Positions 22,501 to 50,695 of a DNA stretch of 64,000 nucleotides are shown here, one piece after another. Both the position numbers and the translations under genes were made by a program. The DNA is taken from positions 76,200,001 to 76,264,000 of the forward strand of contig OZ076409.1 in NCBI GenBank assembly GCA_964187785.1, in the 5' to 3' direction. The notes under the pieces were generated by a model. The model did not search any database, was not told where the DNA came from, and saw only the letters and a program-made list of their open reading frames with translations. This DNA is from Amphiscolops sp. MND2022 (lineage: Eukaryota). Numbering within the stretch: position 1 is the first letter of the stretch; each line of letters opens with the position of its first letter.

Positions 22501-25500
22501 TTTTAACTCTAATAGCTATCGATAGGAAATCTTGCAAAAATTTCGGGATCTCGTGATCTAACCATAGGATTTTAAAGTTGGAGCGGCCCCCACCAGATTT
22601 TCCGAAAATTAGCGCCCCCCACCGGGTTCCATACCCCGGAAAATTTTTTTCTGGCCACACGGGCGACCGTTAGGGGGTCATTTTAGGGGTAAAATTCATA
22701 TTGGGCCACATAACTTTTTTTCTGTTGATTTAAAACTTTGGGACCCTGCTAAAAGTTTCTTGACCGTGTTGCAGGGGCCCCGGAGGTCCAAACCAAATTT
22801 TTCTATCTTGAAGCTATCTCCAAGTACCCCCCCGCTCAAACCGTTATTTTCCCGGAAACGCAGGTTTTTGACCCGGAAGGAGTCGTCTGAGCGCGGGGTC
22901 GTTAGGTAATGTTTTGGGGACGGCCTTGAGACGAAGTGGGGGACATGTAGTTTGCCAACCTCAGTTTACCCCCCGGACGGGAAATGACCGTTATATGACC
23001 GGGAAAAATGCCCCCCTCCACGTTTTACCGCTATTTCCGGTGTGAAGGAGTGGGAGTAGCGCGTCGGTTCCCATATATCAAAAGTAGGTTTAAACAAGGA
23101 CCTATCGGAAACATGTGGTTTGGGACCCCCTGGACCAACCCGTAAGCAGGAAATGGGGCTTCCGGCCCGTTTTTTTACGGTTAAAAACGGAAAATGGGCA
23201 TTGAGGGGTAAATATCTCGTGAACGCGTGGAGCTACGGTGTCCTTCACTACTACAAGGTTTCATACCCATGATATGGTGCCTTCAGGGGGGCAAACAGAT
23301 TTCCGCTATCTATCACCGTTACCGACTTGGCCCCCCAGCCTAACCGCTATTTGACCGGAAATGTCAGTTTTTGAGCCCTAAGGGTCGGTCCGAGCGTGGC
23401 ATCGTTAGGTAACTTATTGTAGTACTCAATGAGACTAGTTGGGGGATATAGTTTCAGTCACGCCCCGTTACCCCTTGGGACCGGAAATGACCGTTATGTG
23501 GGTAAAATTGCAATTTTTGTACTTTTTGAAGGGCAATTAGGTGCGGAAGGAGTGGTAATAGGTGCTTGGACACTATTTGAGGTAAGGGAGGACGTGAGGC
23601 GAGCATTCAGAAATAACCGTTATGTTGACCCCAAAGTCCCCCTGGTACCGTAAACGACCGGAAATGGTCAAATTTTGTGTCTATTGAGTACAAATGTTTG
23701 GTGTTTTATGAATAAAAGTACCTATTAGGTGTTTCGACGGTCTGCAGTAGTGAACATAGTCATGAAACCTTACGGGGGGTAACGGTATATAGCACCGGAA
23801 GTCCAAACCGTTGGAGACAGGATAGGTTTTTTGGTTTTAAAATGTCTTTCGGCGTACTTTTGTTGACTATTATGGACTATTTTTAAAAATTAAAGTTTTT
23901 CCATATAGTTTCAGAGACACCGAAACCTCAACCAACATAACCGTTACCTTATGATAGCCTTTCAAGTTGGCCTGGTGTCAACTTGGAGGGGCTATCCTTC
24001 AAAAATCGTTAATCAAGTGTGTTTTTGGGTATGTTTGTATCAATTTAGAATCAATTAGAGCTTCAAGAAAAGTTTGCCAACGACAAAAACTATGTCGTGA
24101 TGATTCCGTTATTAGAATAGTAGTTAACAAACTGTTGATAAAATTGATTTATTACATTTCAAATGTGTCCTAAAAGCCAGAAAACCTCTTTACCAAACAA
24201 ATGGTATTGATTGAATAGTATATAACAGGTAATAAAAGTTCAAATTGGTTATTACGTTTCATTATTGAAGCTAAAACTTCATAACAAAGTTTAGTTAACG
24301 TCCACGCCACATACTTTACATCAACGCCCACCGTCTGTGGGCATGCCGAGGCATGCCCTTCGACGACGTATACCAAATACATACCTAACGACGCCCGTAC
24401 ATCCCGGGCTAGGTGCGGGGGGGAAACCCCAACAAAATTTTTGGAGGATTCGGGTAGGGTCCTGAATCCGAGTTCAGTGCTGCCAGCTTTCGTTAAGAAA
24501 ATTTGGATAGGATTCGGGATCTCGTGATCTAACCATAGGATTTTAAAGTTGGAGCGGCCCCCACCAGATTTTCCGAAAATTAGCGCCCCCCACCGGGTTC
24601 CATACCCCGGAAAATTTTTTTCTGGCCACACGGGCGACCGTTAGGGGGTCATTTTAGGGGTAAAATTCATATTGGGCCACATAACTTTTTTTCTGTTGAT
24701 TTAAAACTTTGGGACCCTGCTAAAAGTTTCTTGACCGTGTTGCAAGGGCTCCGGAGGTCCAAACCAAATTTTTCTAGCTTGAAGCTATCTCCAAGTACCC
24801 CCCCGCCCAAAACGTTATTTTTCCGGAAACGCAGGTTTTTGACCCGGAAGGAGTCGTCTGAGCGCGGGGTCGTTAGGTGATGTTTTGGGGACGGCCTTGA
24901 GATGAAGTGGGGGACATGTAGTTTGCCAACCTCAGTTTACCCCCCGGACGGGAAATGACCGTTATATGAGCGGCAAAAATGTCCCCCTCCACGTTTTACC
25001 GCTATTTCCGGTGTGAAGGAGTGGGAGTAGCGCGTCGGGTGCCATATATCAAAAGTAGGTTCAGACAAGGACCTATCGGAAACATGTGGTTTGGGACCCC
25101 CTGGCCCAACCCGTTAGCGGGAAATGGGGCTTCCGCCTCCTTTTTTTACTGCTAAAACCGTAAAATGGGCATTGAGGGGTAAATATCTCGTGAACGCGTG
25201 GAGCAATCGTGTCCATCACTACTACAAGGTTTCATACCCATGATATGGTGCCTTCAGGGGGGCAAACCGATTTCCGCTATCTATCACCGTTACCGACTTG
25301 GCCCCCCAGCCTAACCGCTATGTGACCGGAAATGTCACTTTTTGAGCCCAAAGGGTCGGTCCCAGCCGGGGAACGTTACGTAACTTATTGTAGTACTCAA
25401 TGAGACGAGTTGGGGGATATAGTTTCAGTCACCCCCCGTTTCCGCTTGGGACCGGAAATGACCGTTATGTGGGTAAAATTGCAATTTTTATACTTTTTCA

Positions 25501-28360: not shown

Positions 28361-30345
28361 GTGCGGGGGGGTAACCCCAACTTTTTTCTTGGAGGATTCG
28401 GGTAGGGTCCTGAATCCGATCTTAGTGCCGCCAGCTATCGTTAAAAACCCATACCTTTTAAACCCGATCTCGGGAACTAACCACGCCCCTTCTTTAATTT
28501 TTTGGCCCCCACTCACTTTTTGATAGTAGATCGCCCCCCACTGGGTTCCAAGTTGGGCAAAAATGGAGGTCATGGGTAACGGGGACCGTTAAGGGGTAAC
28601 TCAGGGGGTAAAATTTATTTTTTGCGTCATATCTTTTCCCCCCGTGGATTTAGCGCTTCCGGTCAGCAGACAAAACCTCATGTACGTGATACGGGGCCTC
28701 CGTAGGTCCAAACAAAATTTTTCTATCATGCACCGTTACGGACTTGCCCCCCCGGCCCAACCGTTATTTTACCGGAAATTGCACTTTTTGACCGGGAAGG
28801 AGTCGTCTGAGCACGGAGTCGTTTGGTAATGTTTTGTAGTGCATCTGGAGACGTGTTGGGGGACATGTAGTTTGCCGGCCCCAGTTTACCCCCCGGACGG
28901 GAAATGACCGTTATGTCAGTTTTAAAATTACCCCCCTTCAATTTTCCCCGTTATTTCCGGTGTGAAGGAGTGGGAGTAGCGCGTCGGGTACCATATATCA
29001 AAAGTAGGTTTAGACAAGGACCAACCGGAAACATGTGGTTTGGGACCCCCTGACCCAACCCGTTAGCCGTTATAAGGGTGATCGCCTCCTTTTTTTACAC
29101 TCAAAACAGGAAAACGGGCATTGAGGGGTAAATATCTCGTGAACGCGTGGAGCAATCGTGTCCATCACTACTACAAGGTTTCATACCCATGATATGGTGC
29201 CTTCAGGGGGGCAAACAGATTACCGCTATCTATCACCGTTACCGACTTGGCCCCCCAGCCCAACCGCTATGTGACCGGAAATTGCACTTTTTGAGCCCAA
29301 AGGGTCGATCCTAGCCGGGCAACGTTAGGTAACATATTGTGGTACTCATTGAGACGAGTTGGGGGACATAGTTTCAGTCACCCCCCGTTACCCCTTAGGA
29401 CCGGAAATGACCGTTATGTGAGTAGAATTGCAATTTTTATACCTTTTGAAGGGCATTTAGGTGCGGAAGGAATGGTAATAGGTGCTTGGACACTATATGA
29501 TGTAATGGAGGTCGTGAGGCGAGCATTCGGAAATAACCGTTATGTTGACCCCAAAGTCCCCCTGGTACCGTAAATGACCGGAAATGGTCAAATTTTGTGT
29601 TTCTAGGGCACAAATGTTTGGTTTTTTAAGCATTAAAGTACAGGTTAGGTGTTTCGACGTTCTGCAGTAGTGAACATAGTCATGAAACCTTGTGGGGGGT
29701 AACGGTATACAGCACCGGAAGTCCAAACCGTTGGTCATAGAATAGGTTTTTGGTTACAAAATGTCTTCAGGCGTAGTTTTGTTGGTTGAATTGTCATAAT
29801 ATCAACTATTATGGACTTGTAATGAAAGTAAAATTTTTTCACATTAGTTTCAGGGACCTCCAATGTTTCAGTCAACATAACCGTTACATTTTGATAGCCT
29901 GTCAAGTTGGCCTGGTGTCAACTTGGAAGGGCTATCCTTCTAAAATTGGTAATCACGAATGTTTTTGGGTAGGTATATACTGCATTAGTACCAATTAGAG
30001 CTTCATCAACAGTTTACCAACGACAAAAACTATGTCCTGATGATTCCGTTATTAGAATAAAAGTTAACAAATTTTTGAAAAAGTTGACTTTTTACATTTC
30101 AAATGTGTCCTAAATGCGAGGAAACCTATTTAAATAACAAAAGGAATTGATTGAAACTAAATATTAGGTTAAAAAAGTTACTTCGTTCCGTTATGGAAGC
30201 TGAAACGTTATATAATAGTGTAATTAACGTCAACGCCACATACTTTACATCAACGCCCACCGTCCGTAGGCATGCCGAGGCATGCCTTTCGACGACGTAT
30301 ACCAAATTCCACCCACACAACACCCCCGAGCGCGGTAGCAGCTAG
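28361..30345 (+). mobile_element. Divergent family A subfamily unit (1985 bp)
   Basis: Same termini and colinear with A, but about 28480-29100 carries many more substitutions than other A copies. Confidence 0.75.
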
Positions 30346-33300
30346 GTGCGGGGGGGAAACCCCATCCCTTATCTTGGAGGATTCGGGTAGGGTCCTGAAT
30401 CCGATCTTAGTTCGCCCAGCTCTCAGTAGAAATCTGGGAAATTTTTTGCGATCTCGTGATCTAACCATAGGATTTTAAAGTTGGAGCGGCCCCCACCAGA
30501 TTTTCCAAAGTTATTCGCCCCCCACCGGGTTCCAGCGTGATTGAAATATTTTGACGGGGTACACGGGCGACCGTTAGGGGTCATTTTGGGGGTAAAATTT
30601 ATATCCGGTCGCATAACTTTTTTCCTGTTGGATTAAAACTTTGGGACCCTACTAAAAGTTTCTTGACCGTGTTGCGGGGGCTCCGGAGGTCCAAACCAAA
30701 TTTTTCTATCTTGAAGCTATCTCCAAGTACCCCCCCGCCCAAAACGTTATTTTTCCGGAAACGCAGGTTTTTGACCCGGAAGGAGTCGTCGGAGCGCGGG
30801 GTCGTTAGGTGATGTATTGGGGACGGCCTTAAGACGAAGTGGGGGACATGCAGTTTGCCAACCCCAGTTTACCCCCCGGACGGGAAATGACCGTTATATG
30901 AGCGGGAAAAATGCCCCCCTCCACGTTTTACCGCTATTTCCGGTGTGAAGGAGTGGGAGTAGCGCGTCGGGTGCCATATATCAAAAGTAGGTTTGAACAA
31001 GGAACTATCGGAAACATGTGGTTTGGGACCCCCTGGACCAACCCGTTAGCGGGAAATGGGGCTTCCGCCTCCTTTTTTTACTGCTAAAACAGTAAAATGG
31101 GCATTGAGGGGTAAATATCTCGTGAACGCGTGGAGCAATCGTGTCCATCACTACTACAAGGTTTCATACCCATGATATGGTGCCTTCAGGGGGGCAAACA
31201 GATTTCCGCTATCTATCACCGTTACCGACTTGGCCCCCCAGCCTAACCGCTATGTGACCGGAAATGTCACTTTTTGAGCCCAAAGGGTCGGTCCCAGCCG
31301 GGGAACGTTAGGTAAATTATTGTAGTACTCAATGAGACGAGTTGGGGGATATAGTTTCAGTCACCCCCCGTTACCCCTTGGGACCGGAAATGACCGTTAT
31401 GTGGGTAAAATTGCAATTTTTATACTTTTTCAAGTGTATTTAGGTGCGGAAGGAGTGGTAATAGGTGCTTGGACACTATATGAGGCAAGGGAGGACGTGA
31501 GGCGAGCATTCGGAAATAACCGTTATGTTGACCCTAAAGTCCCCCTGGTACCGTAAACGACCGGAAATGGTCAAATTTTGTGTCTATTGGGTACAAATGT
31601 TTAGTATTTTGTAGATAAAAGTATCTATTAGGTGTTTCGACGGTCTGCAGTAGTGAACATAGTCATGAAACCTTGTGGGGGGTAACGGTATATAGCACCG
31701 GAAGTCCAAACCGTTGGTGACAGGATAGGTTTTTTGGTTTTAAAATGTCTTTCGGCGTACCTTTGTCGACTATTAAGGACTATTTTTAAAAATTAAAGAT
31801 TTTCCATATAGTTTCAGAGACCTCGAAACCTCAACCAACATAACCGTTACCTCATGATAGCCTTTCAAGTTGGCCTGGTGTCAACTTGGAAGGGCTATCC
31901 TTCAAAAATCGTCAATCAAGTGTGTTTTTGGGTATGTTTGTATCATTTTAGAATCAATTAGAGCTTCAAGAAAAGTTTCCCAACAACAAAAACTATGTCG
32001 TGAAGATTCCGTTACTAGAATTATAGTTAGCAAATTGTTGAGAAAATTTTTTTTTCCAAATTAAATGTGTCCTAAATGCCAGGAAACCTATTTTACTAAC
32101 AAATGGTATTGATTGGAATGTATGTAACAGATTTATAAAAGTTCAAATTGATTATTAGGTTTCATTATGGAAGCTGAAACGTAATATTTTAGTTTAATTA
32201 ACGTCAACGCCACACACTTTACATCAACGCCCACCGTCTGTGGGCATGCCGAGGCATGCCCTTCGACGACGTATACCAAATACATACCTAACGACGCCCG
32301 TACATCCCGGGCTAGGTGCGGGGGGGTAACCCCAACAAAATTTTTGGAGGATTCGGGTAGGGTCCTGAATCCGATTTCAACTCTAATAGCTATCGATAGG
32401 AAATCTTGCAAAAATTTCGGGATCTCGTGATCTAACCATAGGATTTTAAAGTTGGAGCGGCCCCCACCAGATTTTCCAAAGTTATTCGCCCCCCACCGGG
32501 TTCCAGCGTGATTGAAATATTTTGACGGGGTACATGGGCGACCGTTAGGGGTCATTTTGGGGGTAAAATTTATATCCGGTCGCATAACTTTTTTCCTGTT
32601 GGTTTAAAACTTTGGGACCCTGCTAAAAGTTTCTTGACCGTGTTGCGGTGGCTCCGGAGGTCCAAACAAAATTTTTCTATCTTGAAGCTATCTCCAAGTA
32701 CCCCCCCGCCCAAACCGTTATTTTTCCGGAAACGCAGGTTTTTGACCCGGAAGGAGTCGTCTGAGCGCGGGGTCGTTAGGTGATGTATTGGGGACGGCCT
32801 TGAGACGAAGCGGGGGACATGTAGTTTGCCAACCTCACTTTACCCCCCGGACGGGAAATGACCGTTATATGAGCGGGAAAAATGCCCCCCTCCACGTTTT
32901 ACCGCTATTTCCGGTGTGAAGGAGTGGGAGTAGCGCGTCGGGTGTTATATAACAAAAGTAGGTTTAGACAAGGACCTAACGGAAACATGTAGTTTGGGAC
33001 CCTCTGGACCAACCCGTTAGCGGGAAATGGCGCTTCCGCTTCCTTTTTTTACTGCTAAAACCGTAAAATGGGCATTGAGGGGTAAATATCTCGTGAACGC
33101 GTGGAGCAATCGTGTCCATCACTACTACAAGGTTTCATACCCATGATATGGTGCCTTCAGGGGGGCAAACAGATTTCCGCTATCTATCACCGTTACGGAC
33201 TTGGCCCCCCAGCCTAACCGCTATGTGACCGGAAATGTCACTTTTTGAGCCCAAAGGGTCGGTCCCAGCTAGGGAACGTTAGGTAACTTATTGTAGTACT

Positions 33301-34290
33301 CAATGAGACGAGTTGGGGGACATAGTTTCAGTCACCCCCCGTTACCCCTTGGGACCGGAAATGACCGTTATGTGGGTAAATTTGCATTTTTTATACTCTT
33401 TGAAGTGCATTTATGTGCGGAAGGAGTGGTAATAGGTGCTTGGACACTATATGAGGTAAGGGAGGACGTGAGGCGAACATTCGGAAATAACCGTTATGTT
33501 GACCCTAAAGTCCCCCTGGTACCGGAAGTGACCCGTAATGGTCAAATTTTGTGTTCAAAGGGTACAAATGTTTGGTGTTTTATGGATAACAGTGCCTATT
33601 AGGTGTTTCGACGGTCTGCAGTCGTGAACATAGTCATGAAACCTTGTGGGGGGTAACGGTATATAGCACCGGAAGTCCAAACCTTTGGAGAAAGGATAAG
33701 TTTTTTGGTTTTAAAATGTCTTTCGGCCTACTTTTGTCGACTATTATGGTCTATTTTTGAAAAATAAAGTTTTTCCATATAGTTTCAGAGACTCCGAAAC
33801 CTCAACCAACATAACCGTTACGTTATGATAGCCTTTCAAGTTGGCCTGGTGTCAACTTGGAAGGGCTATCCTTCAAAAATCATTAATCAAGTGTGCTTTT
33901 GAGTATGTTTGTATTACTTTAGAATCAATTAGAGCTTCAAGACAAGTTTGCCAACGACAAAAACTATGTCGTGATGATTCCGTTATTAGAATAATGGTTA
34001 AGAAAATGTTGATAAATTTGATTTTTTACATTTCAAATGTGTCCTAAATGCCAGGAAACCTCTTTACCAAACAAATGGTATTGAGTGAATTGTATATAAC
34101 AGCTAATAAAAGTTCAAATTGAATATTACGTTTCATTTTGGAAGCTGAAACGTCATATTGTAGTTTAATTAACGTCAACGCCACATACTTTACATCAACG
34201 CCCACCGTCCGTAGGCATGCCGAGGCATGCCTTTCGACGACGTATACCAGATTCCACCCACACAACACCCCCGAGCGCGGTAGCAGCTAG
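30346..34290 (+). mobile_element. Two family A units (30346-32315, 32316-34290)
   Basis: GCTAG|GTGCG junctions; lengths 1970 and 1975 bp. Confidence 0.75.
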
Positions 34291-34354
34291 GTGCGGGGGG
34301 GAAACCCCTTCCTTTATCTTGGAGGATTCGGGTAGGGTCCTGAATCCGATTTTA

Positions 34355-34389
34355 GTTCGCCCAGCTCTCAGTAGAAATCTGGGAAATTT
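34355..34389 (+). repeat. 35 bp direct repeat, left copy (candidate target-site duplication)
   Basis: GTTCGCCCAGCTCTCAGTAGAAATCTGGGAAATTT, identical to 36364-36398 and directly abutting the nested unit. Confidence 0.85.
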
Positions 34390-36363
34390 GTGCGGGGGGG
34401 TAACCCCAACAAATATATTGGAGGATTCGGGTAGGGTCCTGAATCCGATTTTAACTCTAATAGCTATCGATAGGAAATCTTGCAAAAATTTCGGGATCTC
34501 GTGATCTAACCATAGGATTTTAAAGTTGGAGCGGCCCCCACCAGATTTTCCGAAAATTAGCGCCCCCCACCGGGTTCCAGCGTGATTGAAATATTTTGAC
34601 GGGGTACACGGGCGACCGTTAGGGGTCATTTTGGGGGTAAAATTTATATCCGGTCGCATAACTTTTTTTCTGTTGATTTAAAACTTTGGAACCCTGCTAA
34701 AAGTTTCTTGACCGTGTTGCAGGGGCCCCGAAGGTCCAAACCAAATTTTTCTATCTTGAAGCTATCTCCAAGTACCCCCCCGCTCAAACCGTTATTTTTC
34801 CGGAAACGCCGGTTTTTGACCCGGAAGGAGTCGTCTGAGCGCGGGGTCGTTAGGTGATGTATTGGGGACGGCCTTGAGACGAAGTGGGGGACAAGTAGTT
34901 TGCCAACCTCAGTTTACCCCCCGGACGGAAAATGACCGTTATATGAGCGTGAAAAATGCCCCCCTCCACGTTTTACCGCTATTTCCGGTGTGAAGGAGTG
35001 GGAGTAGCGCGTCGGGTGCCATATATCAAAAGTAGGTTTAGACAAGGATCTATCGGAAACATGTGGTTTGGGACCCCCTGGACCAACCCGTTAGCAGGAA
35101 ATGGGGCTTCCGGCCCGTTTTTTTACGGTTAAAAACGGAAAATGGTCATTGAGGGGTAAATATCTCGTGAACGCGTGGAGCAATCGTGTCCTTCACTACT
35201 ACAAGGTTTCATACCCATGATATGGTGCCTTCAGGGGGGCAAACAGATTACCGCTATCTATCACCGTTACCGACTTGGCCCCCCAGCCTAACCGCTAAGT
35301 GACCGGAAATGTCATATTTTGAGCCCTAAGGGTCGGTCAGAGCGTGGCATCGTTAGGTAACTTATTGTAGTACTCATTGAGACGAGTTGGGGGATATAGT
35401 TTCAGTCACCCCCCGTTACCCCTTAGGACCGGAAATGACCGTTATGTGGGTAAATTTGCAATTTTTGAACTTTTTGAAGGGCATTTAGATGCGGAAGGAG
35501 TGGTAATAGGTGCTTGGACACTATATGAAGGAAGGGAGGACGTGAGGCGAGCATTCGAAAATAACCGTTATGTTGACCCCGAAGTCCCCCTGGTACCGGA
35601 AGTGACCCGTAATGGTCAAATTTCGTGTTTTTAGGGTACAAATATTTGGTGTTTTATGGATAACAGTGCCTATTAGGTGTTTCGACGGTCTGCAGTCGTG
35701 AACATAGTTTTGAAACCTTGTGGGGGGTAACGGTATATAGCACCGGAAGTCCAAACCGTTGGACACAGGATAAGTTTTTTGGTTTTAAAATGTCTTTCAG
35801 CCTACTTTTGTCGACTATTATGGACTATTTTTGAAAAATAAAGTTTTTCCATATAGTTTCAGAGACTCCGAAACCTCAGCCAACATAACCGTTACCTTAT
35901 GATAGCCTTTCAAGTTGGCCTGGTGTCAACTTGGAAGGGCTATCCTTCAAAAATCATTAATCAAGCGTGTTTTTGAGTATGTTTGTATTACTTTAGAATC
36001 AATTAGAGCTTCAAGAAAAGTTTGCCAACGACAAAAACTATGTCGTGATGATTCCATTATTGGAATATTAGTTAACAAAATGTTGATAAAGTTGATTTTT
36101 TACATTTCAAAAGTGTCCCAAATGCCAGAAAACCTCTTTACCAAACAAATGGTTTTGATTGGATTGTATATAACAGCTAATAAAAGTTCAAATTGAATAT
36201 TACGTTTATTATGCAAGCTGAAACGTCAAATTATAGTTTAATTAACGTCAACGCCACATACTTTACATCAACACCCACCGTCCGTAGGCATGCCGAGGCA
36301 TGCCTTTCGACGACGTATACCAAATTCCACCCACACAACACCCTCGAGCGCGGTAGCAGCTAG
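34390..36363 (+). mobile_element. Complete family A unit (1974 bp) nested inside another A unit
   Basis: Begins exactly at GTGCGGGGGGGTAACCCC after ...CTGGGAAATTT with no preceding CTAG. Ends GCAGCTAG followed by GTTCGCCC rather than GTGCG. Confidence 0.85.
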
Positions 36364-36398
36364 GTTCGCCCAGCTCTCAGTAGAAATCTGGGAAATTT
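36364..36398 (+). repeat. 35 bp direct repeat, right copy (candidate target-site duplication)
   Basis: Identical to 34355-34389 and directly follows the nested unit's terminal CTAG. Confidence 0.85.
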
Positions 36399-38292
36399 TT
36401 TGCGATCTCGTGATCTAACCATAGGATTTTAAAGTTGGAGCGGCCCCCACCAGATTTTCCAAAGTTATTCGCCCCCCACCGGGTTCCAGCGTGATTGAAA
36501 TATTTTGACGGGGTACACGGGCGACCGTTAGGGGTCATTTTGGGGGTAAAATTTATATCCGGTCGCATAACTTTTTTCCTGTTGGATTAAAACTTTGGGA
36601 CCCTGCTAAAAGTTTCTTGACCGTGTTGCGGGGGCTCCGGAGGTCCAAACCAAATTTTTCTATCTTGAAGCTATCTCCAAGTACCCCCCCGCCCAAAACG
36701 TTATTTTTCCGGAAACGCAGGTTTTTGACCCGGAAGGAGTCGTCGGAGCGCGGGGTCGTTAGGTGATGTATTGGGGACGGCCTTGAGACGAAGTGGGGGA
36801 CATGCAGTTTGCCAACCCCAGTTTACCCCCCGGACGGGAAATGACCGTTATATGAGCGGGAAAAATGCCCCCCTCCACGTTTTACCGCTATTTCCGGTGT
36901 GAAGGAGTGGGAGTAGCGCGTCGGGTGCCATATATCAAAAGTAGGTTTGAACAAGGAACTATCGGAAACATGTGGTTTGGGACCCCCTGGACCAACCCGT
37001 TAGCGGGAAATGGGGCTTCCGCCTCCTTTTTTTACTGCTAAAACCGTAAAATGGGCATTGAGGGGTAAATATCTCGTGAACGCGTGGAGCAATCGTGTCC
37101 ATCACTACTACAAGGTTTCATACCCATGATATGGTGCCTTCAGGGGGGCAAACAGATTTCCGCTATCTATCACCGTTACCGACTTGGCCCCCCAGCCTAA
37201 CCGCTATGTGACCGGAAATGTCACTTTTTGAGCCCAAAGGGTCGGTCCCAGCCGGGGAACGTTAGGTAAATTATTGTAGTACTCAATGAGACGAGTTGGG
37301 GGATATAGTTTCAGTCACCCCCCGTTACCCCTTGGGACCGGAAATGACCGTTATGTGGGTAAAATTGCAATTTTTATACTTTTTCAAGTGTATTTAGGTG
37401 CGGAAGGAGTGGTAATAGGTGCTTGGACACTATATGAGGTAAGGGAGGACGTGAGGCGAGCATTCGGAAATAACCGTTATGTTGACCCTAAAGTCCCCCT
37501 GGTACCGTAAACGACCGAAAATGGCCAAATTTTGTGTCTATTGGGTACAAATGGTTGGTATTTTATGGATAAAAGTACCTGGAAGGTGTTTTAAAGGCCT
37601 CCAGAAGTGAACATAGTCATGAAACCTTGTGGGGGGTAACGGTATATAGCACCGGAAGTCCAAACCGTTGGTCACAGAATAGGTTTTTTGGTTTCAAAAT
37701 GTCTTTAGGCATAGTTTTGTGGGTTGAATCGTCATAATATTAACTAATACGGACTTTTTTCGGAAATAAAATTTTTTCACATTAGTTTCAGGGACCTCCA
37801 ATGCTTCAGTCAACATAACCGTTACATTTTGATAGCCTTTCAAGTTGACCTGGTGTCAACTTGGAAGGGCTATCCTTCTAAAATCGTTAATCAAGAGTGT
37901 TTTTGGGTAGGTATATGTTGCATTAGTACCAATTAGAGCTTCATCAACAGTTTGCCAACGGCAAAAACGATGTCGTGATAATTCCGTTATAAAAATATTA
38001 GTTAACAAATTGCTTTCAAAGTTGATTTTTCCCATTAAAAATGTGTCCTAATGCCACCAAATTGAATAAAATAATAAATGGTATTGACTAAAACTAAATA
38101 ACAATGAAAAAGAAGATCAACATTTTCATTAGGTCTCATTATGGAAGCTGAAACCTCACGTTTTAGTCTAATTAACGTCAACGCCACATACTTTACATCA
38201 ACGCCCACCGTCTGTGGGCATGCCGAGGCATGCCCTTCGACGACGTATACCAAACAACCTCCATATCTACACCCACCCGCGGTAGCAGCTAG

Positions 38293-41200
38293 GTGCGGGG
38301 GGGAAACCCCATCCCTTATCTTGGAGGATTCGGGTAGGGTCCTGAATCCGATTTTAGTTCGCCCAGCTCTCAGTAGAAATCTGGGAAATTTTTTGCGATC
38401 TCGTGATCTAACCATAGGATTTTAAAGTTGGAGCGGCCCCCACCAGATTTTCCAAAGTTATTCGCCCCCCACCGGGTTCCAGCGTGATTGAAATATTTTG
38501 TCGGGGTACACGGGCGACCGTTAGGGGTCATTTTAGGGGTAAAATTTATATCCGGTCGCATAACTTTTTTCCTGTTGGTTTAAAACTTTAGGACCCTGCT
38601 AAAAGTTTCTTGACCATGTTGCAGGGGCCCCGGAGGTCCAAACCAAATTTTTCTATCTTGAAGCTATCTCCAAGTACCCCCCCGCCCAAACCGTTATTTT
38701 TCCGGAAACGCAGGTTTTTGACCCGGAAAGAGTCGTCTGAGCGCGGGGTCGTTAGGTGATGTTTTGGGGACGGCCTCGAGACGAAGCGGGGGATATATAG
38801 TTTGCCGACCCCAGTTTACCCCCCGCACGGGAAATGACCGTTATATGAGCGGAAAAAATGCCCCCCTCCACGTTTTACCGCTATTTCCGGTGTGAAGGAG
38901 TGGGAGTAGCGCGTCGGGTGTTATATATCAAAAGTAGGTTTAGACAAGGACCTATCGGAAACATGTAGTTTGGGACCCCCTGGACCAACCCGTTAGCAGG
39001 AAATGGGGCTTCCGCCTCCTTTTTTTACTGCTAAAACCGTAAAATGGGCATTGAGGGGTAAATATCTCGTGAACGCGTGGAGCAATCGTGTCCATCACTA
39101 CTACAAGGTTTCATACCCATGATATGGTGCCTTCAGGGGGGCAAACAGATTTCCGCTATCTATCACCGTTACCGACTTGGCCCCCCAGCCTAACCGCTAT
39201 GTGACCGGAAATGTCACTTTTTGAGCCCAAAGGGTCGGTCCCAGCCGGGGAACGTTAGGTAACTTATTGTAGTACTCAATGAGACGAGTTGGGGGATATA
39301 GTTTCAGTCACCCCCGTTACCCCTTAAGACCGGAAATGACCGTTATGTGAGTAAATTTGCCGTTTTTGTCCTATTTGAAGGGCATTTAGATGCGGAAGGA
39401 GTGGTAATAGGTGCTTGGACACTATATGAGGTAAGGGAGGATATGAGGCGAGCATTCGGAAATAACCGTTATGTTGACCCCAAAGTCCCCCTGGTACCGT
39501 AAACGACCGGAAATGGTCAAATTTTCTGTTTATAGGGTACAAATGTTTGGTATTTTGTAGATAAAAGTATCTATTAGGTGTTTCAAAGGCCTCCAGAAGT
39601 GAACATCGTCATGAAACCTTGTGGGGGGTAACGGTATATAACACCGGAAGTCCAAACCGTTGGTCACAGAATAGGTTTTTTGGTTTCAAAATGTCTTTAG
39701 GCGTAGTTTTATGGGTTGAATCGTCATAATATCAACTATTACGGACATTTTTCGGAAAAAAAATTTTTTCACATTAGTTTCAGAGACCTCCAATGCTTCA
39801 GTCAACATAACCGTTACATTTTGATAGCCTTTCAAGTTGGCCTGGCGTCAACTTGGAAGGGCTATCCTTCTAAAATCGTTAATCAAGAGTGTTTTTGGGT
39901 AGGTATATGTTGCATTAGTACCAATTAGAGCTTCATCAACAGTTTGCCAACGGCAAAAACGATGTCGTGATAATTCCGTTATAAGAATATTATTTAAAAA
40001 ATTGTTTACAAAGTTGATTTTTTTCATTTAAAATGTGTCCTAATGCCACCAAATTGAATAAAATAATAAATGGTATTGACTAAAACTAAATAACATTGAA
40101 AAAGAAGATCAACATTTTTATTAGGTCTCATTATGGAAGCTGAAACCTCACGTTTTAACTTGATTAACGTCAACGCCACATACTTTACATCAACGCCACC
40201 GTCTGTGGGCATGCCGAGGCATGCCCTTCGACGACGTATACCAAACAACCTCCATATCTACACCCGATTGCGGTAGCAGCTAGGTGCGGGGGGGTAACCC
40301 CAACAAAGATATTGGAGGATTCGGGTAGGGTCCTGAATCCGATCTTAGTACCGTCAGCTATCAGTAGAAAATTTCCCTCAAAAACCGGGATCTCGGGAAC
40401 TAACCGTAGGATTTGGAAGTTGGAGCGGCCCCCACCAGATTTTCCCGAATAGATCGCCCCCCACCGGGCTCCATACCCCGGAAAATTTTTTTTTGGCCAC
40501 ACGGGCGACAGTTAGGGGGTCATTTTAGGGGTAAAATTCATATTGGTCCATATAACTTTTTTCCTGTTGGTTTAAAAGTTTGGGAACCCTTCTAAAGGTT
40601 TTTCGACCATGTTGCAAGGGCTCCGGAGGTGCAAACCAAATTTTTCTATCTTGAAGCTATCTCCAAGTACCCCCCCGCTCAAACCGTTATTTTTCCGGAA
40701 ACGCAGGTTTTTGACCCGGAAGGAGTCGTCTGAGCGCGGGGTCGTTAGGTGATGTTTTGGGGACGGCCTTGAGACAAAGTGGGGGACAAGTAGTTTGCCA
40801 ACCTCAATTTACCCCCCGGACGGGAAATGACCGTTATATGAGCGTGAAAAATGCCCCCTCCACGTTTTACCGCTATTTCCGGTGTGAAGGTGTGGGAGTA
40901 GCGCGTCGGGTGCCATATATCAAAAGTAGGTTTAGACAAGGATCTATCAAAAACATGTGGTTTGGGACCCCCTGACCCAACCCGTTAGCGGGAAATGGGG
41001 CTTCCGCCTCCTTTTTTTTCGGTTAAAAACGGAAAATGGGCATTGAGGGGTAAATATCTCGTGAACGCGTGGAGCTACGGTGTCCTTCACTACTACAAGG
41101 TTTCATACCCATGATATGGTGCCTTCAGGGGGGCAAACAGATTTCCGCTATCTATCACCGTTACGGACTTGGCCCCCCAGCCTAACCGCTATGTGACCGG

Positions 41201-44200
41201 AAATGTCACTTTTTGAGCCCAAAGTGTCGGTCCCAGCCAGGGAACGTTAGATAACTTTTTGTAGTACTCATTGAGACGAGTTGGGGGACATAGTTTCAGT
41301 CACCCCCCCGTTACCCCTTGTGACCGGAAATGACCGTTATGTGGGTAAAATTGGGATTTTTGTACTTTTTGAAGGGCAATTAGGTGCGGAAGGAGTGGTA
41401 ATAGGTGCTTGGACACTATATGATGGAATGGAGGACGTGAGGCGAACATTCAGACATAACCGTTATGTTGACCCTAAAGTCCCCCTGGTACCGTAAACGA
41501 CCGGAAATGGTCAAATTTTGTGTCTATTGGGTACAAATGTTTGGTATTTTGTAAATAAAAGTATCTATTAGGTGTTTCGACGGTCTGCAGTAGTGAACAT
41601 AGTCATGAAACCTTGTGGGGGGTAACGGTATATAGCACCGGAAGTCCAAAACGTTAGAGACGGGATAGGTTTTTCCGTTTTAAAATGTCTTTCGGCGTAC
41701 TTTTGTCAACTAATATGGAATATTTTTTAAAATTAAAGTTTTTCCATATAGTTTCAGAGACTCCCAAACCTCAAACAACATAACCGTTACCTTATGATAG
41801 CCTTTCAAGTTGGCCTGGTGTCAACTTGGAAGGGCTATCCTTCAAAAATCGTTGATCAAGTGTGTTTTTGGGTATGTTTGAATCATTTTAGAATCAATTA
41901 GAGCTTCAAGAAATGTTTGCCAACGACAAAAACTATGTCGTGATGATTCCGTTATTAGAGTGATAGTTAACAAAATATTGATTAAGTTGATTTTTTACAT
42001 TTCAAAAGTGTCCTAAAAGCCGGAAAACCTCTTTACCAAACAAATGGTATTGATTGGATTGTATATAACAGGTAATAAAAGTTCAAATTGATTATTACGT
42101 TTTATTATGTAAGCTGAAACGTCATATTATAGTTTAATTAACGTCAACGCCACATACTTTACACCAACGCCCACCGTCTGTGGGCATGCCGAGGCATGCC
42201 CTTCGACGACGTATACCAAATACATTTCATATCTACACCCACCCGCGGTAGCAGCTAGGTGCGGGGGGGTAACCCCAACAAATATATTGGAGGATTCGGG
42301 TAGGGTCCTGAATCCGATTTTAACTCTAATAGCTATCGATAGGAAATCTTGCAAAAATTTCGGGATCTCGTGATCTAACCATAGGATTTTAAAGTTGGAG
42401 CGGCCCCCACCAGATTTTCCAAAATTGATCGCCCCCCACCGGGTTCCATACCCCGGAAAATTTTTTTCTGGCCACACGGGCGACCGTTAGGGGGTCATTT
42501 TAGGGGTAAAATTCATATTGGGCCACATAACTTTTTTTCTGTTGATTTAAAACTTTGGAACCCTGCTAAAAGTTTCTTGACCGTGTTGCAGGGGCCCCGA
42601 AGGTCCAAACCAAATTTTTCTATCTTGAAGCTATCTCCAAGTACCCCCACGCTCAAACCGTTATTTTTCCGGAAACGCAGGTTTTTGACCCGGAAGGAGT
42701 CGTCTGAGCGCGGGGTCGTTAGGTGATGTATTGGGGACGGCCTTGAGACGAAGTGGGGGACAAGTAGTTTGCCAACCTCAATTTACCCCCCGGACGGGAA
42801 ATGACCGTTATATGAGCGTGAAAAATGCCCCCCTCCACGTTTTACCGCTATTTCCTGTGTGAAGGAGTGGGAGTAGCGCGTCGGGTGTTATATAACAAAA
42901 GTAGGTTTAGACAAGGACCTATCGGAAACATGTAGTTTGGGACCCCCTGGACCAACCCGTTAGCGGGAAATGGGGCTTCCGCCTCCTTTTTTTAGTGCTA
43001 AAACCGTAAAATGGGCATTGAGGGGTAAATATCTCGTGAACGCGTGGAGCAATCGTGTCCATCACTACTACAAGGTTTCATACCCATGATATGGTGCCTT
43101 CAGGGGGGCAAACAGATTTCCGCTATCTATCACCGTTACCGACTTGGCCCCCCAGCCTAACCGCTATGTGACCGGAAATGTCACTTTTTGAGCCCAAAGG
43201 GTCGGTCCCAGCCGGGGAACGTTAGGTAACTTATTGTAGTACTCAATGAGACGAGTTGGGGGATATAGTTTCAGTCACCCCCCGTTACCCCTTGGGACCG
43301 GAAATGACCGTTATGTGGGTAAAATTCCAATTTTTATACTTTTTCAAGTGTATTTAGGTGCGGAAGGAGTGGTAATAGGTGCTTGGACACTATATGAGGT
43401 AAGGGAGGACGTGAGGCGAGCATTCGGAAATAACCGTTATGTTGACCCTAAAGTCCCCCTGGTACCGTAAACGACCGGAAATGGTCAAATTTTGTGTCTA
43501 TTGGGTACAAATGTTTTGTATTTTGTAGATAAAAGTATCTATTAGGTGTTTCGACGGTCTACAGTAGTGAACATAGTCATGAAACCTTGTGGGGGGTAAC
43601 GGTATATAGCACCGGAAGTCAAACCGTTGGAGACAGGATAGGTTTTTTGGTTTTAAATTGTCTTTCGGCGTAATTTTTTCGACTCTTGTGGAGTATTTTT
43701 AAAAATTAAAGTTTTTCCATATAGTTTCAGAGACTCCGAAACCTCAACCAACATAACCGTTACTTTATGATAGCCTTTCAAGTTGGCCTGGTGTCAACTT
43801 GGAAGCGCTATCCTTCTGAAATCGTTAATCAAGAGTGTTTTTGGGTAGGTATATATTGCATTAGTACCAATTAGAGCTTCATCAACAGTGTATCAACGAC
43901 AAAAACTATGCCGTCATGATTCCGTTATTAGAATCATAGTGAGCAAATTGTTGAAAAAAATGGTTTTTACCATACAAAATGTGTCCTAAATGCCAGGAAA
44001 CCTATTTACCTAACAAATGGTATTAATTGGAATGTTTGTAACAGATTTATAAAAGTTCAAATTGAATATTACATTTCATTATGGAAGCTGAAACGTCATA
44101 TTTTAGTTTAATTAACGTCAACGCCACACACTTTACATCAACGCCCACCGTCTGTGGGCATGCCGAGGCATGCCCTTCGACGACGTATGACAAATCCATA

Positions 44201-46198
44201 TCAAACGACGCCCGTACATCCCGGGCTAGGTGCGGGGGGGAAACCCCAACAAAGATATTGGAGGATTCGGGTAGGGTCCTGAATCCGATTTTAACTCTAA
44301 TAGCTATCGATAGGAAATCTTGCAAAAATTTCGGGATCTCGTGATCTAACCATAGGATTTTAAAGTTGGAGCGGCCCCCACCAGATTTTCCGAAAATTAG
44401 CGCCCCCCACCGGGTTCCATACCCCGGAAAATTTTTTTCTGGCCACACGGGCGACCGTTAGGGGGTCATTTTAGGGGTAAAATTCATATTGGGCCACATA
44501 ACTTTTTTTCTGTTGATTTAAAACTTTGGAACCCTGCTAAAAGTTTCTTGACCGTGTTGCAGGGGCCCCGAAGGTCCAAACCAAATTTTTCTATCTTGAA
44601 GCTATCTCCAAGTACCCCCCCGCTCAAACCGTTATTTTTCCGGAAACGCAGGTTTTTGACCCGGAAGGAGTCGTCTGAGCGAGGGGTCGTTAGGTGATGT
44701 ATTGGGGACGGCCTTGAGACGAAGTGGGGGACAAGTAGTTTGCCAACCTCAATTTACCCCCCGGACGGGAAATGACCGTTATATGAGCGTGAAAAATGCC
44801 CCCCTCCACGTTTTACCGCTATTTCCGGTGTGAAGGAGTGGGAGTAGCGCGTCGGGTGTTATTTAACAAAAGTAGGTTTAGACAAGGACCTATCGGAAAC
44901 ATGTAGTTTGGGACCCCCTGGACCAACCCGTTAGCGGGAAATGGGGCTTCCGCCTCCTTTTTTTAGTGCTAAAACCGTAAAATGGGCATTGAGGGGTAAA
45001 TATCTCGTGAACGCGTGGAGCAATCGTGTCCATCACTACTACAAGGTTTCATACCCATGATATGGTGCCTTCAGGGGGGCAAACAGATTTCCGCTATCTA
45101 TCACCGTTACCGACTTGGCCCCCCAGCCTAACCGCTATGTGACCGGAAATGTCACTTTTTGAGCCCAAAGGGTCGGTCCCAGCCGGGGAACGTTAGGTAA
45201 CTTATTGTAGTACTCAGTGAGACGAGTTGGGGGATATAGTTTCAGTCACCCCCCGTTACCCCTTGGGACCGGAAATGACCGTTATGTGGGTAAAATTGCA
45301 ATTTTTATACTTTTTCAAGTGTATTTAGGTGCGGAAGGAGTGGTAATAGGTGCTTGGACACTATATGAGGTAAGGGAGGACGTGAGGCGAGCATTCGGAA
45401 ATAACCGTTATGTTGACCCTAAAGTCCCCCTGGTACCGTAAACGACCGGAAATGGTCAAATTTTGTGTCTATTGGGTACAAATGTTTTGTATTTTGTAGA
45501 TAAAGTATCTATTAGGTGTTTCGACGGTCTACAGTAGTGAACATAGTCATGAAACTTTGTGGGGGGTACCGTATATAGCACCGGAAATCCAAACCGTTGG
45601 AGACAGGATAGGTTTTTTGGTTTTAAAATGTCTTTCGGCGTACTATTGTCGACTATTATGGACTATTTTTAAAAAATAAAGTTTTTCCATATAGTTTCAG
45701 AGACTCCGAAACCTCAACCAACATAACCGTTACCTTATGATAGCCTTTCAAGTTGGCCTGGTGTCAACTTGGAAGGGCTATCCTTCAAAAATCGTTAATC
45801 AAGTGTGTTTTTGGGTATGTTTGTATCATTTTAGAATCAATAAGAGCTTCAAGAAAAGTTTGCCAACGACAAAAACTATGTCGTGATAATTCCGTTACTA
45901 GAATGATGGTTAACAAAATGTTGATAAAGTTGATTTTTTACATTTCAAATGTGTCCTAAAAGCCAGAAAACCTCTTTACCAAACAAATGGTATTGATTGA
46001 ATTGTATATAACAGGTAATAAAAGTTCAAATTGATTATTACGTTTCATTATTCAAGCTAAAAATTCATAACATAGTTTAATTAACGTCAACGCCACACAC
46101 TTTACATCAACGCCCACGGTCTGTGGGCATGCCGAGGCATGCCCTTCGACGACGTATGACAAATCCATATAAAACGACGCCCGTACATCCCGGGCTAG
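38293..46198 (+). mobile_element. Four family A units starting at 38293, 40284, 42259, 44230
   Basis: GCTAG|GTGCG junctions; lengths 1969-1991 bp. Confidence 0.75.
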
Positions 46199-47469
46199 GT
46201 GGTCTGTCCCGGTTAGGACATTAAAATAGGGCGAGGCCGGGGAGGGTCCCGTGCCGAGTTTTGGGTAGCGCGGAGCAGGGTTCAACATCTTACGTACCCC
46301 CGACCAAAAAACGACGATCTCGAATCCCACCCGTACGATTCGGCTGAAATTTGGCATGCGGCTTCCTCTAGCGATTCTAAGAACTTTTCCCTACTACCAT
46401 TTTGCCCAGAAATTATTTTTTGTTGACTTTTAGACTATTTTAGGGTCAGGAAGGAGCGTTTTTTCAAAAAATTTTTTTTCAAGAGCCCATATCTCGCTCC
46501 CACGTGCTCGGAGCGGGTCGCATGTGGACGTTGATATTGCTGGGCACTTCGTAAGGAGTCCGTAGACAAATTTTCGTCCAGATCGGATAAAAATTGACTG
46601 AGTAATAGCCGCAAATCGGACGATTTTTCTCGAAAATTTTGGTACATCTAGTCTATCTCTGCCGTTTTTTGCCCAGATTTTTTTCCAAGACCTCTCCTAA
46701 AGACCTCCCCTGGCCAGTTTACCTCCCAAAAAAACCATTTGGCCCTTTTGCCGCAGTTTCAGCGTTCCAGGATTCCCCGGGTAAAAGATAAATGACTTAG
46801 AATTTTTTCAAAAAATTTTCAAAATTTTTTTTTTAAACTTCAGGCCTCCCAAAGTCAAACAACTTCCACACAACTAGTATTGCAAGTGGATGCATGTGGG
46901 AAGTGCTCGAATAGACGAGAAAAATGAGCTATTATAAACTTCTGTAGCTTGACCTGACGTTGACTTATGACAATTTTAGTGTGAGCTTGCTATGTGAGAA
47001 AAAAATTCAAAAATTGAAAATCGAAGCTAAGTTTCATCTAAAACTCATCGGAATCCGTTGAATCCATTCTAAAGCGGTTCAATTCCAGCTGTTTAGTGCA
47101 GCAATACCATTCAAGGTCGTTTGACTCATTTTCATAAGTTTTGACACCGTCTTATCCATCCGAAAATTCGAAACAGTTGAGTACATTCCATCTCCCCTCC
47201 GTGGGAGATGGTAATGTACTCGAAAAAAGCCAAAGTCCTACCGCCCCATTCTACCCGGAGTGGTGCTAGCTATGCAGTAGCGTGAGCTCCAGGTTGTTTG
47301 CAGTAGCCTTTACGTATGTTGTGACTATGTATTACAATTATATCTCTTTAACTAAACATGAAAAAATTGTTTCAATCCCAAAATTTTTTTTTCAACTTTA
47401 GTATGTATATACATATACAACATTATACAGTGTCGCCCTACTTGCCATCACAGTCATTGCCTGCACTGG
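46199..47469 (+). mobile_element. Family C unit C1 (1271 bp) with an alternative 3' end
   Basis: Starts GTGGTC after GCTAG and is homologous to C2/C3 internally. Ends GCACTGG before GTGGCCGG, the same start as C3, and lacks the GGGCATGCC palindrome. Confidence 0.75.
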
Positions 47470-48740
47470 GTGGCCGGGAACTTTTTTTCCTGCATTTTTC
47501 TGTCCAATTGGGGGAGGGGCCCCAAGTGGCTGTTATCCGGTTTTACTACCTACCCTAAACACGCTCAAAAAATGACGATCTCGAAAACCACCCCTTAGAT
47601 TTTCCTGAAACTTTGCATACAGGCTTAGAATCAAATCCTAAGAACTATTTCCTACTGGCGTTTTTCTGAATTTTTTCAAAAAGTTGGTCAAAAATGCAAC
47701 AAAAGTTGCCAATGGACATAAAAAACGCAACTTTTCGACTTTGAGGGCTCATAACTTTTTCCAGAGTGCCCGGAGCAATTCGCACAGTGAGAAAAATATT
47801 GCTCAGCATTGTTGGAGGAGTGCGTGGACAAATTTGGGGTTGAATTGGATGAAAATTGACTGAGAAATAAACGAAAATTTTGGTGCATTTGTTGCAAATA
47901 CCAGTTTATCTCTGCCATTTTCGCCCAAAATTTTTCCCAGAGCCTTTACAGGAGGCAACCCCTGCCCAAATTTCTGCCGAGCAAACCCATTTGGCCCTAA
48001 ATACGAGGTTTCAGCGTTCTAGCATTTCCTGGCAAAAAGTTGTGGGACTCAGAAAAATTTCAAAAAACGCAAAAATTGTAAAAATTAACTTCTGGCGTCC
48101 CAAAGTCAAAAAACTTTCACACAACTAGTATTGCAAGTGAATGCATGTGGAAAGTACTTGCATAGACGAGAAAAATGAGCTATAGAACGACTCTGTAGCT
48201 TAATCTGACGTTGACTTATGACATTTTGAGTGTGAGCTTCCTATAGGATTTTAATGTCAAAAATGAGATTTTGTAAGTCATGTCTAATCAAAAACTCATC
48301 GGAATACGTTCAATCATCCCCATAGCTGTTCAATTACAGTGGCTCAGTAGAGCAACGCCATTTAATGTCCTTGGACCCATTTTGAAAATTTTCCTTACCG
48401 TCTTATTCGTCCGATATCACGAAACAGTTGAGTACATTCCATCTCCCCCCTTGTGGGGGAGATGAGAATGTACTCGCCAAACACCTGACACAATGGCCCA
48501 TATTGGTTTTTATTTGACCATTCTCACAATATTGCACACGGATAGTTGTGTTTGGTAAAAGTTTTCCATTGCACCATGTCTCCAGAGGGTAAACCACTTC
48601 TTTACCTTACTACTACTCAAACATGACTAACGTCAACGCCACATACTCGCATCAACGCCCACCGTCCGTGGGCATGCCGAGGCATGCCCTTCGACGACGT
48701 ATGCCAAATAGTGCCACCTGGCGCCCCCAATTTCCGCTAG
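47470..48740 (+). mobile_element. Family C unit C2 (1271 bp)
   Basis: Starts GTGGCCGGGAA and ends with the shared 3' module and CCGCTAG before GTGCG. Confidence 0.8.
48430..48475 (+). other. Long internal hairpin of family C (also at 47179-47221 and 51654-51699)
   Basis: GAGTACATTCCATCTCCCCC...GGGGGAGATGAGAATGTACTC, about 20 bp of stem with one bulged base. Confidence 0.85.
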
Positions 48741-50695
48741 GTGCGGGGGGGAAACCCCTACAAAGATATTGGAGGATTCGGGTAGGGTCCTGAATCCGAG
48801 TTCAGTGCTGCCAGCTATCGTTAGGGATTTTAGAAAATTTTGCCGATCTCGTGATCTAACCGTAGGATTTTAAAGTTGGAGCGGCCCCCACCAGATTTTC
48901 CAAAGTTATTCGCCCCCCACCGGGTTCCAGCGTGATTGAAATATTTTGACGGGGTACACGGGCGACCGTTAGGGGTCATTTTGGGGGTAAAATTTATATC
49001 CGGTCGCATAACTTTTTTCCTGTTGGTTTAAAACTTTGGGACCCTGCTAAAAGTTTCTTGACCGTGTTGCAGTGGCTCCGGAGGTCCAAACCAAATTTTT
49101 CTATCTTGAAGCTATCTCCAAGTACCCCCCCGCCCAAACCGTTATTTTTCCGGAAATGCAGGTTTTTGACCCGGAAGGAGTCGTCTGAGCGCGGGGTCGT
49201 TAGGTGATGTATTGGGAACGGCCTTGAGACGAAGCGGGGGATATATAGTTTGCCGACCCCAGTTTACCCCCCGGACGAGAAATGACCGTTATATGAGCGG
49301 GAAAAATGCCCCCCTCCACGTTTTACCGCTATTTCCGGTGTGAAGGAGTGGGAGTAGCGCGTCGGGTGTTATATAACAAAAGTAGGTTTAGACAAGGACC
49401 TATCGGAAACATGTGGTTTGGGACCCCCTGGACCAACCCGTTAGCGGGAAATGGGGCTTCCGCCTCCTTTTTTTACTGCTAAAACCGTAAAATGGGCATT
49501 GAGGGGTAAATATCTCGTGAACGCGTGGAGCAATCGTGTCCATCACTACTACAAGGTTTCATACCCATGATATGGTGCCTTCAGGGGGGCAAACAGATTT
49601 CCGCTATCTATCACCGTTAACGACTTGGCCCCCCAGCCCAACCGCTATGTGACCGGAAATGTCACTTTTTGAGCCCAAAGGGTCGGTCCCAGCCGGGGAA
49701 CGTTAGGTAACTTATTGTAGTACTCAATGAGACGAGTTGGGGGATATAGTTTCAGTCACCCCCCGTTACCCCTTGGGACCGGAAATGACCGTTATGTGGG
49801 TAAAATTGCAATTTTTATACTTTTTCAAGTGTATTTAGGTGCGGAAGGCGTGGTAATAGGTGCTTGGACACTATATGAGGTAAGGGAGGACGTGAGGCGA
49901 GCATTCGGAAATAACCGTTATGTTGACCCTAAAGTCCCCCTGGTACCGGAAGTGACCCGTAATGGTCAAATTTTGTGTTCAAAGGGTACAAATGTTTGGT
50001 ATTTTGTAGATAAAAGTATCTATTAGGTGTTTCGACGGTCTGCAGTCGTGAACATAGTCATGAAACCTTGTGGGGGGTAACGGTATATAGCACCGGAAGT
50101 CCAAGCCTTTGGAGACAGGATAAGTTTTTTGGTTTTAAAATGTCTTTCGGCCTACTTTTGTCGACTATTATGGTCTATTTTTGAAAAATAAAGATTTTCC
50201 ATATAGTTTCAGAGACTCCGAAACCTCAACCAACAAAACCGTTACCTTATGATAGCCTTTCAAGTTGGCCTGGTGTCAACTTGGAAGGGCTATCCTTCAA
50301 AAATCAATAATCAAGTGTGTTTTTGAGTATGTTTGTATTACTTTAGAATCAATTAGAGCTTCAAGAAAAGTTTGCCAACGACAAAAACTATGTCGTGATG
50401 ATTCCGTTATTAGAATAATAGTTAAGAAAATGTTGATAAAATTGATTTTTTACATTTCAAATGTGTCCTAAATGCCAGAAAACCTCTTTACCAAACAAAT
50501 GGTATTGATTGAATTGTATATAACAGCTAATAAAAGTTCAAATTGAATATTACGTTTCATTTAATTAGTTTAATTAACGTCAACGCCACATACTTTACAT
50601 CAACGCCCACCGTCCGTAGGCATGCCGAGGCATGCCTTTCGACGACGTATACCAGATTCCACCCACACAACACCCCCGAGCGCGGTAGCAGCTAG
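48741..50695 (+). mobile_element. Family A unit (1955 bp) with a ~20 bp deletion near 50560
   Basis: Standard termini, but the ATGGAAGCTGAAACGTCA segment is missing. Confidence 0.75.

Follow-up and report, generated by a model that had tools for sequence, protein, structure and literature searches.

A complete array unit nested in another unit and flanked by a 35-bp duplication in Amphiscolops sp. MND2022

The array and its unit families

The window analysed here, a 64,000-bp stretch of contig OZ076409.1 from Amphiscolops sp. MND2022 (GCA_964187785.1, positions 76,200,001 to 76,264,000), is occupied by 28 intact main-family units, one further main-family host unit that we rebuilt from its two parts, four units from other families and, at the edges, two incomplete ones (Table 1). 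Main-family units are 1955-1994 bp long and 80-99% identical, and no inverted match longer than 60 bp was found within the window. All 33 complete units start with GTG, and they end with CTAG (32 units) or CTGG (one unit). Every start is exact, no truncated copy occurs among the 33, 5'-truncated copies included, and no poly(A) or simple-repeat tail was found on the units.

The other families can be aligned to the main family over 42-52% only. The three third-family units are 62-70% identical to one another, with 45-64 gap positions on each side, and each is exactly 1271 bp long; indels of random sign would spread their lengths by about 24 bp, and the identical lengths suggest a length constraint. 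The first of them (46199-47469) ends CACTGG, yet it meets both neighbours at exact unit boundaries. Within the main family, a 20-bp indel at alignment column 1432 divides the units into classes of about 1974 and about 1991 bp. The unit at 28361-30345 is just 80-83% identical to every other main unit, and the unit at 48741-50695 carries a 19-bp deletion immediately before its 3' module. An old internal duplication is visible at main unit positions 386-556 and 890-1059 (34775-34945 and 35279-35448 in the window), its copies being 70% identical and 504 bp apart.

Table 1. Features of the array, of the nested unit and of its host (window coordinates)
Feature	Position	Strand	Remark
Head-to-tail array, one orientation, entire window	1-64000	+	33 complete and two partial units
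Second-family unit	9150-10538	+	1389 bp, GTG...CTAG; shares the 5' hairpins, the long hairpin and the 3' module
Interrupted host unit, 5' stub	34291-34389	+	Host unit positions 1-99
Duplication, left copy	34355-34389	+	Host unit positions 65-99
Inserted complete main-family unit, non-coding	34390-36363	+	1974 bp, GTGCG...CTAG
5' hairpin 1 of the insert (G-run/C-run)	34395-34407	+	
5' hairpin 2, loop KAGGGK	34423-34446	+	Invariant in 29 of 29 main units
Long internal hairpin	35901-35944	+	Every family has a counterpart 258-425 nt before its 3' end
Conserved 3' module, about 72 bp	36247-36318	+	A 34-nt hairpin (36279-36312) preceded by two short direct repeats
Variable tail, about 45 nt, CTAG-ended	36319-36363	+	Travels with its own unit
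Duplication, right copy	36364-36398	+	First GT could be read-through from the insert
Host unit remainder	36364-38292	+	Position 65 to CTAG end
Third-family unit	46199-47469	+	1271 bp, GTG start, CTGG end; without 3' module
Third-family unit	47470-48740	+	1271 bp, GTG...CTAG; 3' module present
Third-family unit	50696-51966	+	1271 bp, GTG...CTAG; 3' module present

Ten of the longest stop-to-stop frames, drawn from across the families, gave no Pfam match, and a tRNA search found none. Rfam gave no match in the window or in L001, a metagenome contig described below, and none up to an E value of 1 over 32316-52000, a search by which divergent ribozymes could be missed. CpG was not depleted in the three units measured. 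The hexamers CCGTTA (10 copies against 1.6 expected) and CCGGAA (9 against 1.7) are enriched, mostly on one strand, in the unit at 34390-36363 and in other main units, and both hexamers are absent from the 1271-bp family; we take the first to resemble Myb sites and the second ETS sites. An A-tract periodicity of 10-11 bp was unsupported in five of six units and appeared in the 1389-bp unit only (2 of 100 shuffles).

Hairpin 2 recurs in all four other-family units and in L001 with its stem altered on both sides, and the A of AGGG in its loop lies 42-46 nt from the 5' end in every family. The 3' module is common to 32 of the 33 complete units and to L001 and ends 43-51 nt before the 3' end, while the hairpins of the tail vary (-1.2 to -8.8 kcal/mol). 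Where the conserved hairpins contain mismatches, these read G.T on the + strand, an indication that this strand is the single-stranded form, RNA or DNA; G.T wobble suits single-stranded DNA as well as RNA. Folding is more stable on the + strand than on the - strand for each of the 14 variants listed, with a difference below 0.5 kcal/mol in two of them.

A YRCC motif that could pair with G/GTG (the slash marks a junction) is located 17-27 nt before the junction at 33 of 34 3' ends and in seven of eight tail types, against 25-42% per shuffled tail. As a pairing guide it is a weak lead, the search window having been picked post hoc and the tails being related. At 36285-36306, and in every copy of the 3' module, its hairpin can also be read as a pair of abutting decamers typical of a p53-family response element. 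Such a match was reached in 0-2 of 200 shuffles per unit, a result for which the palindrome alone could account; the hairpin might serve as a promoter for the downstream unit.

The nested unit and its target site

The unit at 34390-36363 lies inside another unit, and its length is within the range of the 29 main-family units. As the initial annotation had claimed, it is an exact unit between identical 35-mers, which can be extended on neither side. GT is common to the right join and to the normal continuation, so the size of the duplication is 33-35 bp. When the insert and one copy of the 35-mer are excised, 34291-34389 and 36399-38292 together form a normal unit of 1993 bp, which is 100% identical to the unit at 16484 over the first 200 alignment columns. 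The same 35-mer stands uninterrupted at unit position 65 in five other units (at 1325, 16548, 30410, 38357 and 55974), and paralogous empty sites thus exist in these five. The earlier proposal of an off-target event with a target duplication is supported.

The insert had further been said to differ from the unit directly upstream (32316), and it does, at 94.5% identity; yet of the 28 other main units none is closer to the insert, the second-closest reaching 93.8%. Isolated private substitutions number only eight in the insert and five in this neighbour, so that the insert is a distinct mosaic haplotype and not a decayed local copy. The host is itself mosaic to a degree that lies within that of the array: its stub carries two letters typical of the unit at 16484, and its body tracks the units at 1261 and 30346. 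In a public sequencing run with related sequence (share 0.10), none of the 10 contigs was at least 99% alike, and among those listed none crosses either nested junction; no RNA run with related sequence was among the runs listed.

All 33 ordinary junctions are seamless, with AG or GG before GTG, and the left join of the nested unit reads TT/GTG. The duplication, once put forward as the best clue to the mechanism, is not the normal footprint of insertion, given that none of these 33 junctions carries one. A 35-bp duplication hidden at the ordinary junctions was considered and rejected: no stub precedes the four other-family units, and the first 35 nt differ from those of the downstream unit at 4.3 positions against 4.5 by chance (p 0.38 over 23 pairs, which exclude the insert and a unit with an additional G).

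As for the choice of target, a near-cognate GT site had been proposed, and the sequence 3' of the right join does match four of the five letters of the unit start. The match is not distinctive, however, since it is equalled or bettered at 13 of the 1993 host positions; a perfect TAG/GTGCGG at host position 1099 and four further internal RG/GTG sites were left unused. The nested site lies 64 bp downstream of the true junction. Local sequence helps, and nearness to the true junction was probably needed as well.

Units as monomers in the array and their relatives elsewhere

Units that lie side by side resemble each other no more than randomly paired ones do (90.1% identity in both cases). Linkage between neighbouring 400-column blocks is strong within units (rho 0.42-0.76) and is lost across the 24 junctions compared (rho -0.0003, permutation p 0.46), which argues that units were mostly added as monomers. 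Of the eight pairs that are nearly identical (at least 98.8%), seven differ in their comparable neighbours; upstream, two pairs are bordered by an other-family unit and one by the window edge. A tract of about 3 kb (about 19874-22871 against 39700-42700), with 98.8% identity and 35 differences in 3000 columns, crosses two junctions and is the sole sign of multi-unit duplication or conversion; array recombination or insertion of multimers therefore occurs as well. The same unit boundary emerges from the family switches, from the loss of linkage and from the nested insert, a concurrence that bears out the earlier statement that the insertion defines the ends of the element. From its sequence, the array looks to have been assembled by repeated seamless insertion of monomers, belonging to several families, at their own junction.

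How mobile elements become long satellite-like arrays is an open question. Each of the usual routes leaves its mark: identical neighbours after rolling-circle copying, a target duplication separating the copies after double insertion, and linkage across junctions after unequal crossing-over. The first two signatures occur nowhere in the window, and the third in one tract only. As a natural mis-insertion, the nested copy fixes both ends of the unit, suggests that the machinery can cut the two strands 33-35 bp apart, and supplies exact substrates with which the enzyme could be sought and tested.

Isolated private substitutions are strand-asymmetric, 45 arising from G and 19 from C (p 0.006, the unit at 28361 being left out), and C>T is not in excess on the + strand (12 against 24 G>A). 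This G bias could stem from chromosomal replication, transcription or assembly error.

Searches with patterns of the 3' module gave no match in viral contigs, none in genome contigs and one in metagenome contigs, namely L001. This unrelated contig of 1172 bp has the same 3' module, the same 5' hairpin and a CGAG/GTG junction. At L001:770-950 the junction anatomy is as in the window, and the pair of 12-bp direct repeats in the module is clearer there. In run X1, one contig starts exactly at the unit start and the tail of another ends GCTAG; these matches and L001 place the family outside the window assembly. A pattern combining junction and hairpin hit nine viral loci, none of them BLAST-similar to the window, and these hits were treated as chance. 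Phage and plasmid searches gave no match. No description of this array-unit family appeared among the papers listed by the literature searches; it may already be catalogued in a repeat library such as Repbase or Dfam.

Candidate mechanisms and likenesses to known elements

For a flanking duplication to form, either two nicks must be staggered or a nicked end must be extended before it is joined. We propose, at a rough probability of 0.45 and hence tentatively, that the nested unit was placed by target-primed reverse transcription, with an enzyme supplied in trans that normally inserts units seamlessly at unit junctions. This reading fits best, rolling-circle transposition by an HUH enzyme being its main rival. 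It is favoured by the 3' module common to families that align so incompletely with the main family, by G.U-type hairpins of the + strand far from the ends, by mosaics confined to units and G-biased mutations without a C>T excess, and by the precedent of R2. A 3' module shared across divergent families resembles the common 3' ends of non-autonomous retroelements. For R2, the cited parts of the literature describe full-length copies that mostly join opposite the first nick and duplications of more than 20 bp that also arise (PMC2718515, PMC3414825).

We infer every enzymatic step of such a route from the sequence. The + strand would be the single-stranded intermediate, probably RNA, whose 5' hairpins would set the unit start at G and whose common 3' module would be the feature recognised by the enzyme. 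A few read-through bases (GUG) may pair with the nicked target, so that unit starts would be preferred, and at an on-target insertion the pair of nicks would be flush. In the nested event, the first cut would have fallen 64 bp downstream of the true junction, at the similar GTTCG, and the second nick 33-35 bp further on, with gap filling producing the duplication.

Several observations count against reverse transcription. None of the 33 units is truncated, and neither a poly(A) or simple-repeat tail nor a ribozyme or RNA-family match was found; R1/R2 copies include truncated ones in the cited account (PMC2718515). All 33 CTRG ends fit the CTRR of Helitrons, one array unit is without the 3' module, the perfect internal TAG/GTGCGG is unused, the 3-kb tract runs over two junctions, and the window gave no match to an enzyme. 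The duplication is seen at one event only.

The HUH rival, of Helitron or Replitron type, is in our view rather unlikely. A monomer circle would be nicked at RG/GTG, and its unit strand-transferred into nick sites already present; at the nested event, either a cryptic nick would have been used and the host 3' end extended by about 35 nt before joining the 5' end of the element, or a second nuclease would have cut the other strand. The duplication had at first been held against a rolling circle, yet it is compatible with one, since target duplications of variable length or occurrence are made by Helitrons of Chlamydomonas and by Replitron-1 in the parts of the reports cited (PMC10288648; PMC9977147). 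The fit to CTRR extends even to the unit with an unrelated 3' end, and full-length copies, 33 ordinary junctions without duplication, hairpins at both ends and direct repeats next to the hairpin of the 3' module agree with this route, while a fixed length of 1271 bp would suit a size-selected circle. On the other side stand the 5' end, GTG rather than TC, and a target that is not A/T, as the cited Helitron descriptions would have it (PMC5876387, PMC13085455), the CGAG end of L001 and, possibly, a conserved hairpin that stops 43-51 nt short of the end. Concatemers should moreover give identical neighbours, whereas neighbours here are no closer than random pairs, and the C>T excess expected of a long-lived + single-stranded DNA is lacking on the + strand.

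Conservative recombination yields no 35-bp duplication, and this is one reason why we regard a tyrosine or serine recombinase as improbable. Circles would be integrated at a short core around G/GTG, which agrees with the addition of several families at a single core, seamlessly, at full length and in one orientation, and the nested event would be an aborted recombination repaired by the host. The left join TT/GTG is without that core, and strand-specific hairpins far from the ends would not be needed. A satellite-like array without dedicated integration seems just as improbable; a staggered break would there have taken up a linear monomer, or breaks made independently in two units of the same subtype would by chance overlap by 35 bp. 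This reading would accommodate the mosaic units, the 3-kb tract over junctions, the slight difference between host stub and host body in their closest relatives, and the fact that the nearest relative of the insert lies directly upstream. Yet the family-switch boundary coincides exactly with both ends of the insert, linkage is lost at the junctions, and across the 29 aligned main units no internal break was found but the shared 20-bp indel and two short deletions. By rough arithmetic, two independent breaks would give the nested pattern about once in 10,000 cases (adjacency and order about 1/33, same subtype about 6/29, overlap within 35 of about 1975 bp about 0.02). Least probable of all, and very much so, is an assembly artefact that joined reads from different array copies. 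The repeat array is long and the nested junctions are known from the assembly alone; even so, the haplotype of the insert is unique, with no other unit more than 94.5% identical to it, and there is no reason why a mis-join should coincide with both ends of the element and create an exact duplication of the target.

By analogy, the units would work like a site-specific non-autonomous retroelement or a Helitron derivative that targets its own junction, and in each family tested (HLE1, R1/R2 SIDEs, Penelope-like elements, Replitron, group II introns and the T. borreli repeats) a defining feature fails. R2, the R2/R1 SIDEs and the tandem R1 arrays of Drosophila are likewise protein-less, site-specific units in tandem arrays in the parts of the work cited (PMC3414825, PMC2718515), and they share a structured 5' end, a common 3' end and a fixed 3' join; full-length R2 copies are mostly joined with no duplication and at times with one of more than 20 bp. 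The R1/R2 target, however, is 28S rDNA, whereas here it is the unit junction, in a window without an Rfam match. Tandem R1, as described there, keeps a duplication between copies, and this array has none. The SIDEs also have an HDV-like 5' ribozyme, with no Rfam counterpart here (divergent ribozymes could be missed), and variable 5' junctions and truncated copies, in contrast to the exact, full-length starts of all 33 units.

Non-autonomous Helitrons (HLE1) and head-to-tail Helitron arrays similarly have asymmetric ends, hairpins, seamless ordinary junctions and families with common termini in the cited sections (PMC5876387, PMC13085455). The 3' CTRR is found in all 33 units and differs in L001 (CGAG), while the 5' TC is replaced by GTG throughout. 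Helitrons insert at A/T without duplication, whereas G/G junctions and, at the nested event, a 33-35 bp duplication are found here; and neighbours in the window, unlike those in Helitron arrays, are not clones. Replitron-1 and its non-autonomous member N1 of Chlamydomonas reinhardtii are copied and pasted with variable target duplications, according to the part of the description cited (PMC10288648). In the same source Replitron-1's left end follows RG, which is true of the 33 ordinary junctions and not of the nested left join. Replitrons are described with short direct repeats at both termini, whereas the GTG and CTRG ends here have no common repeat; our units show no fuzzy end beyond 0-2 nt, and self-stacking was not found described for Replitron-1 in the text cited.

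Penelope-like elements such as MRC1 resemble the units in their multicopy head-to-tail arrangement, common 3' ends and an end feature of 30-40 bp, as far as the cited descriptions go (PMC8557442, PMC11167929, PMC3846280). Their 30-40 bp tail is, in those accounts, derived from the element, whereas the 35-mer here corresponds to host positions 65-99 on both sides. They form pLTR partial tandems, 5'-truncated and inverted copies, in contrast to the full-length, same-strand units of the array. The hammerhead ribozyme of most clades has no match here; Naiad and most Chlamys are also described as being without it (PMC8557442). Double-insertion tandems of transposons arise by repeated insertion at one site, giving satellite-like arrays, and retain the host target duplication between copies in the cited part of that study, whereas the junctions here are without host sequence (10.1101/158386).

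It is conceivable, although we hold it to be unlikely, that the units represent a so far undescribed class of mobile elements that are protein-less and target themselves, in which the joined ends would be the integration target and perhaps a processing signal, several size-constrained families would behave like cassettes, and the nested copy would expose the stagger of the integrating enzyme. The processing signal would possibly be a self-cleaving RNA or nick origin spanning G/GUG, with YRCC in the tail as its guide.

Some further candidates were set aside. The kinetoplast minicircle-like ScaI repeats of T. borreli are more than 99% homogeneous in the portion of the report cited, and the units here are 80-99% identical and fall into several families (PMC9679448). 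A group II intron (GUGYG, AY, domain V) was rejected because GTGCG is found only in the main family, the ends are RG and Rfam gave no match. A spliceosomal intron (GT...AG) was likewise rejected, one unit ending in GG and no conserved donor consensus, pyrimidine tract or branch motif being seen across families. The units may bear some further likenesses, in CSB3 to kinetoplast minicircle repeats, and to IS91 and IS607.
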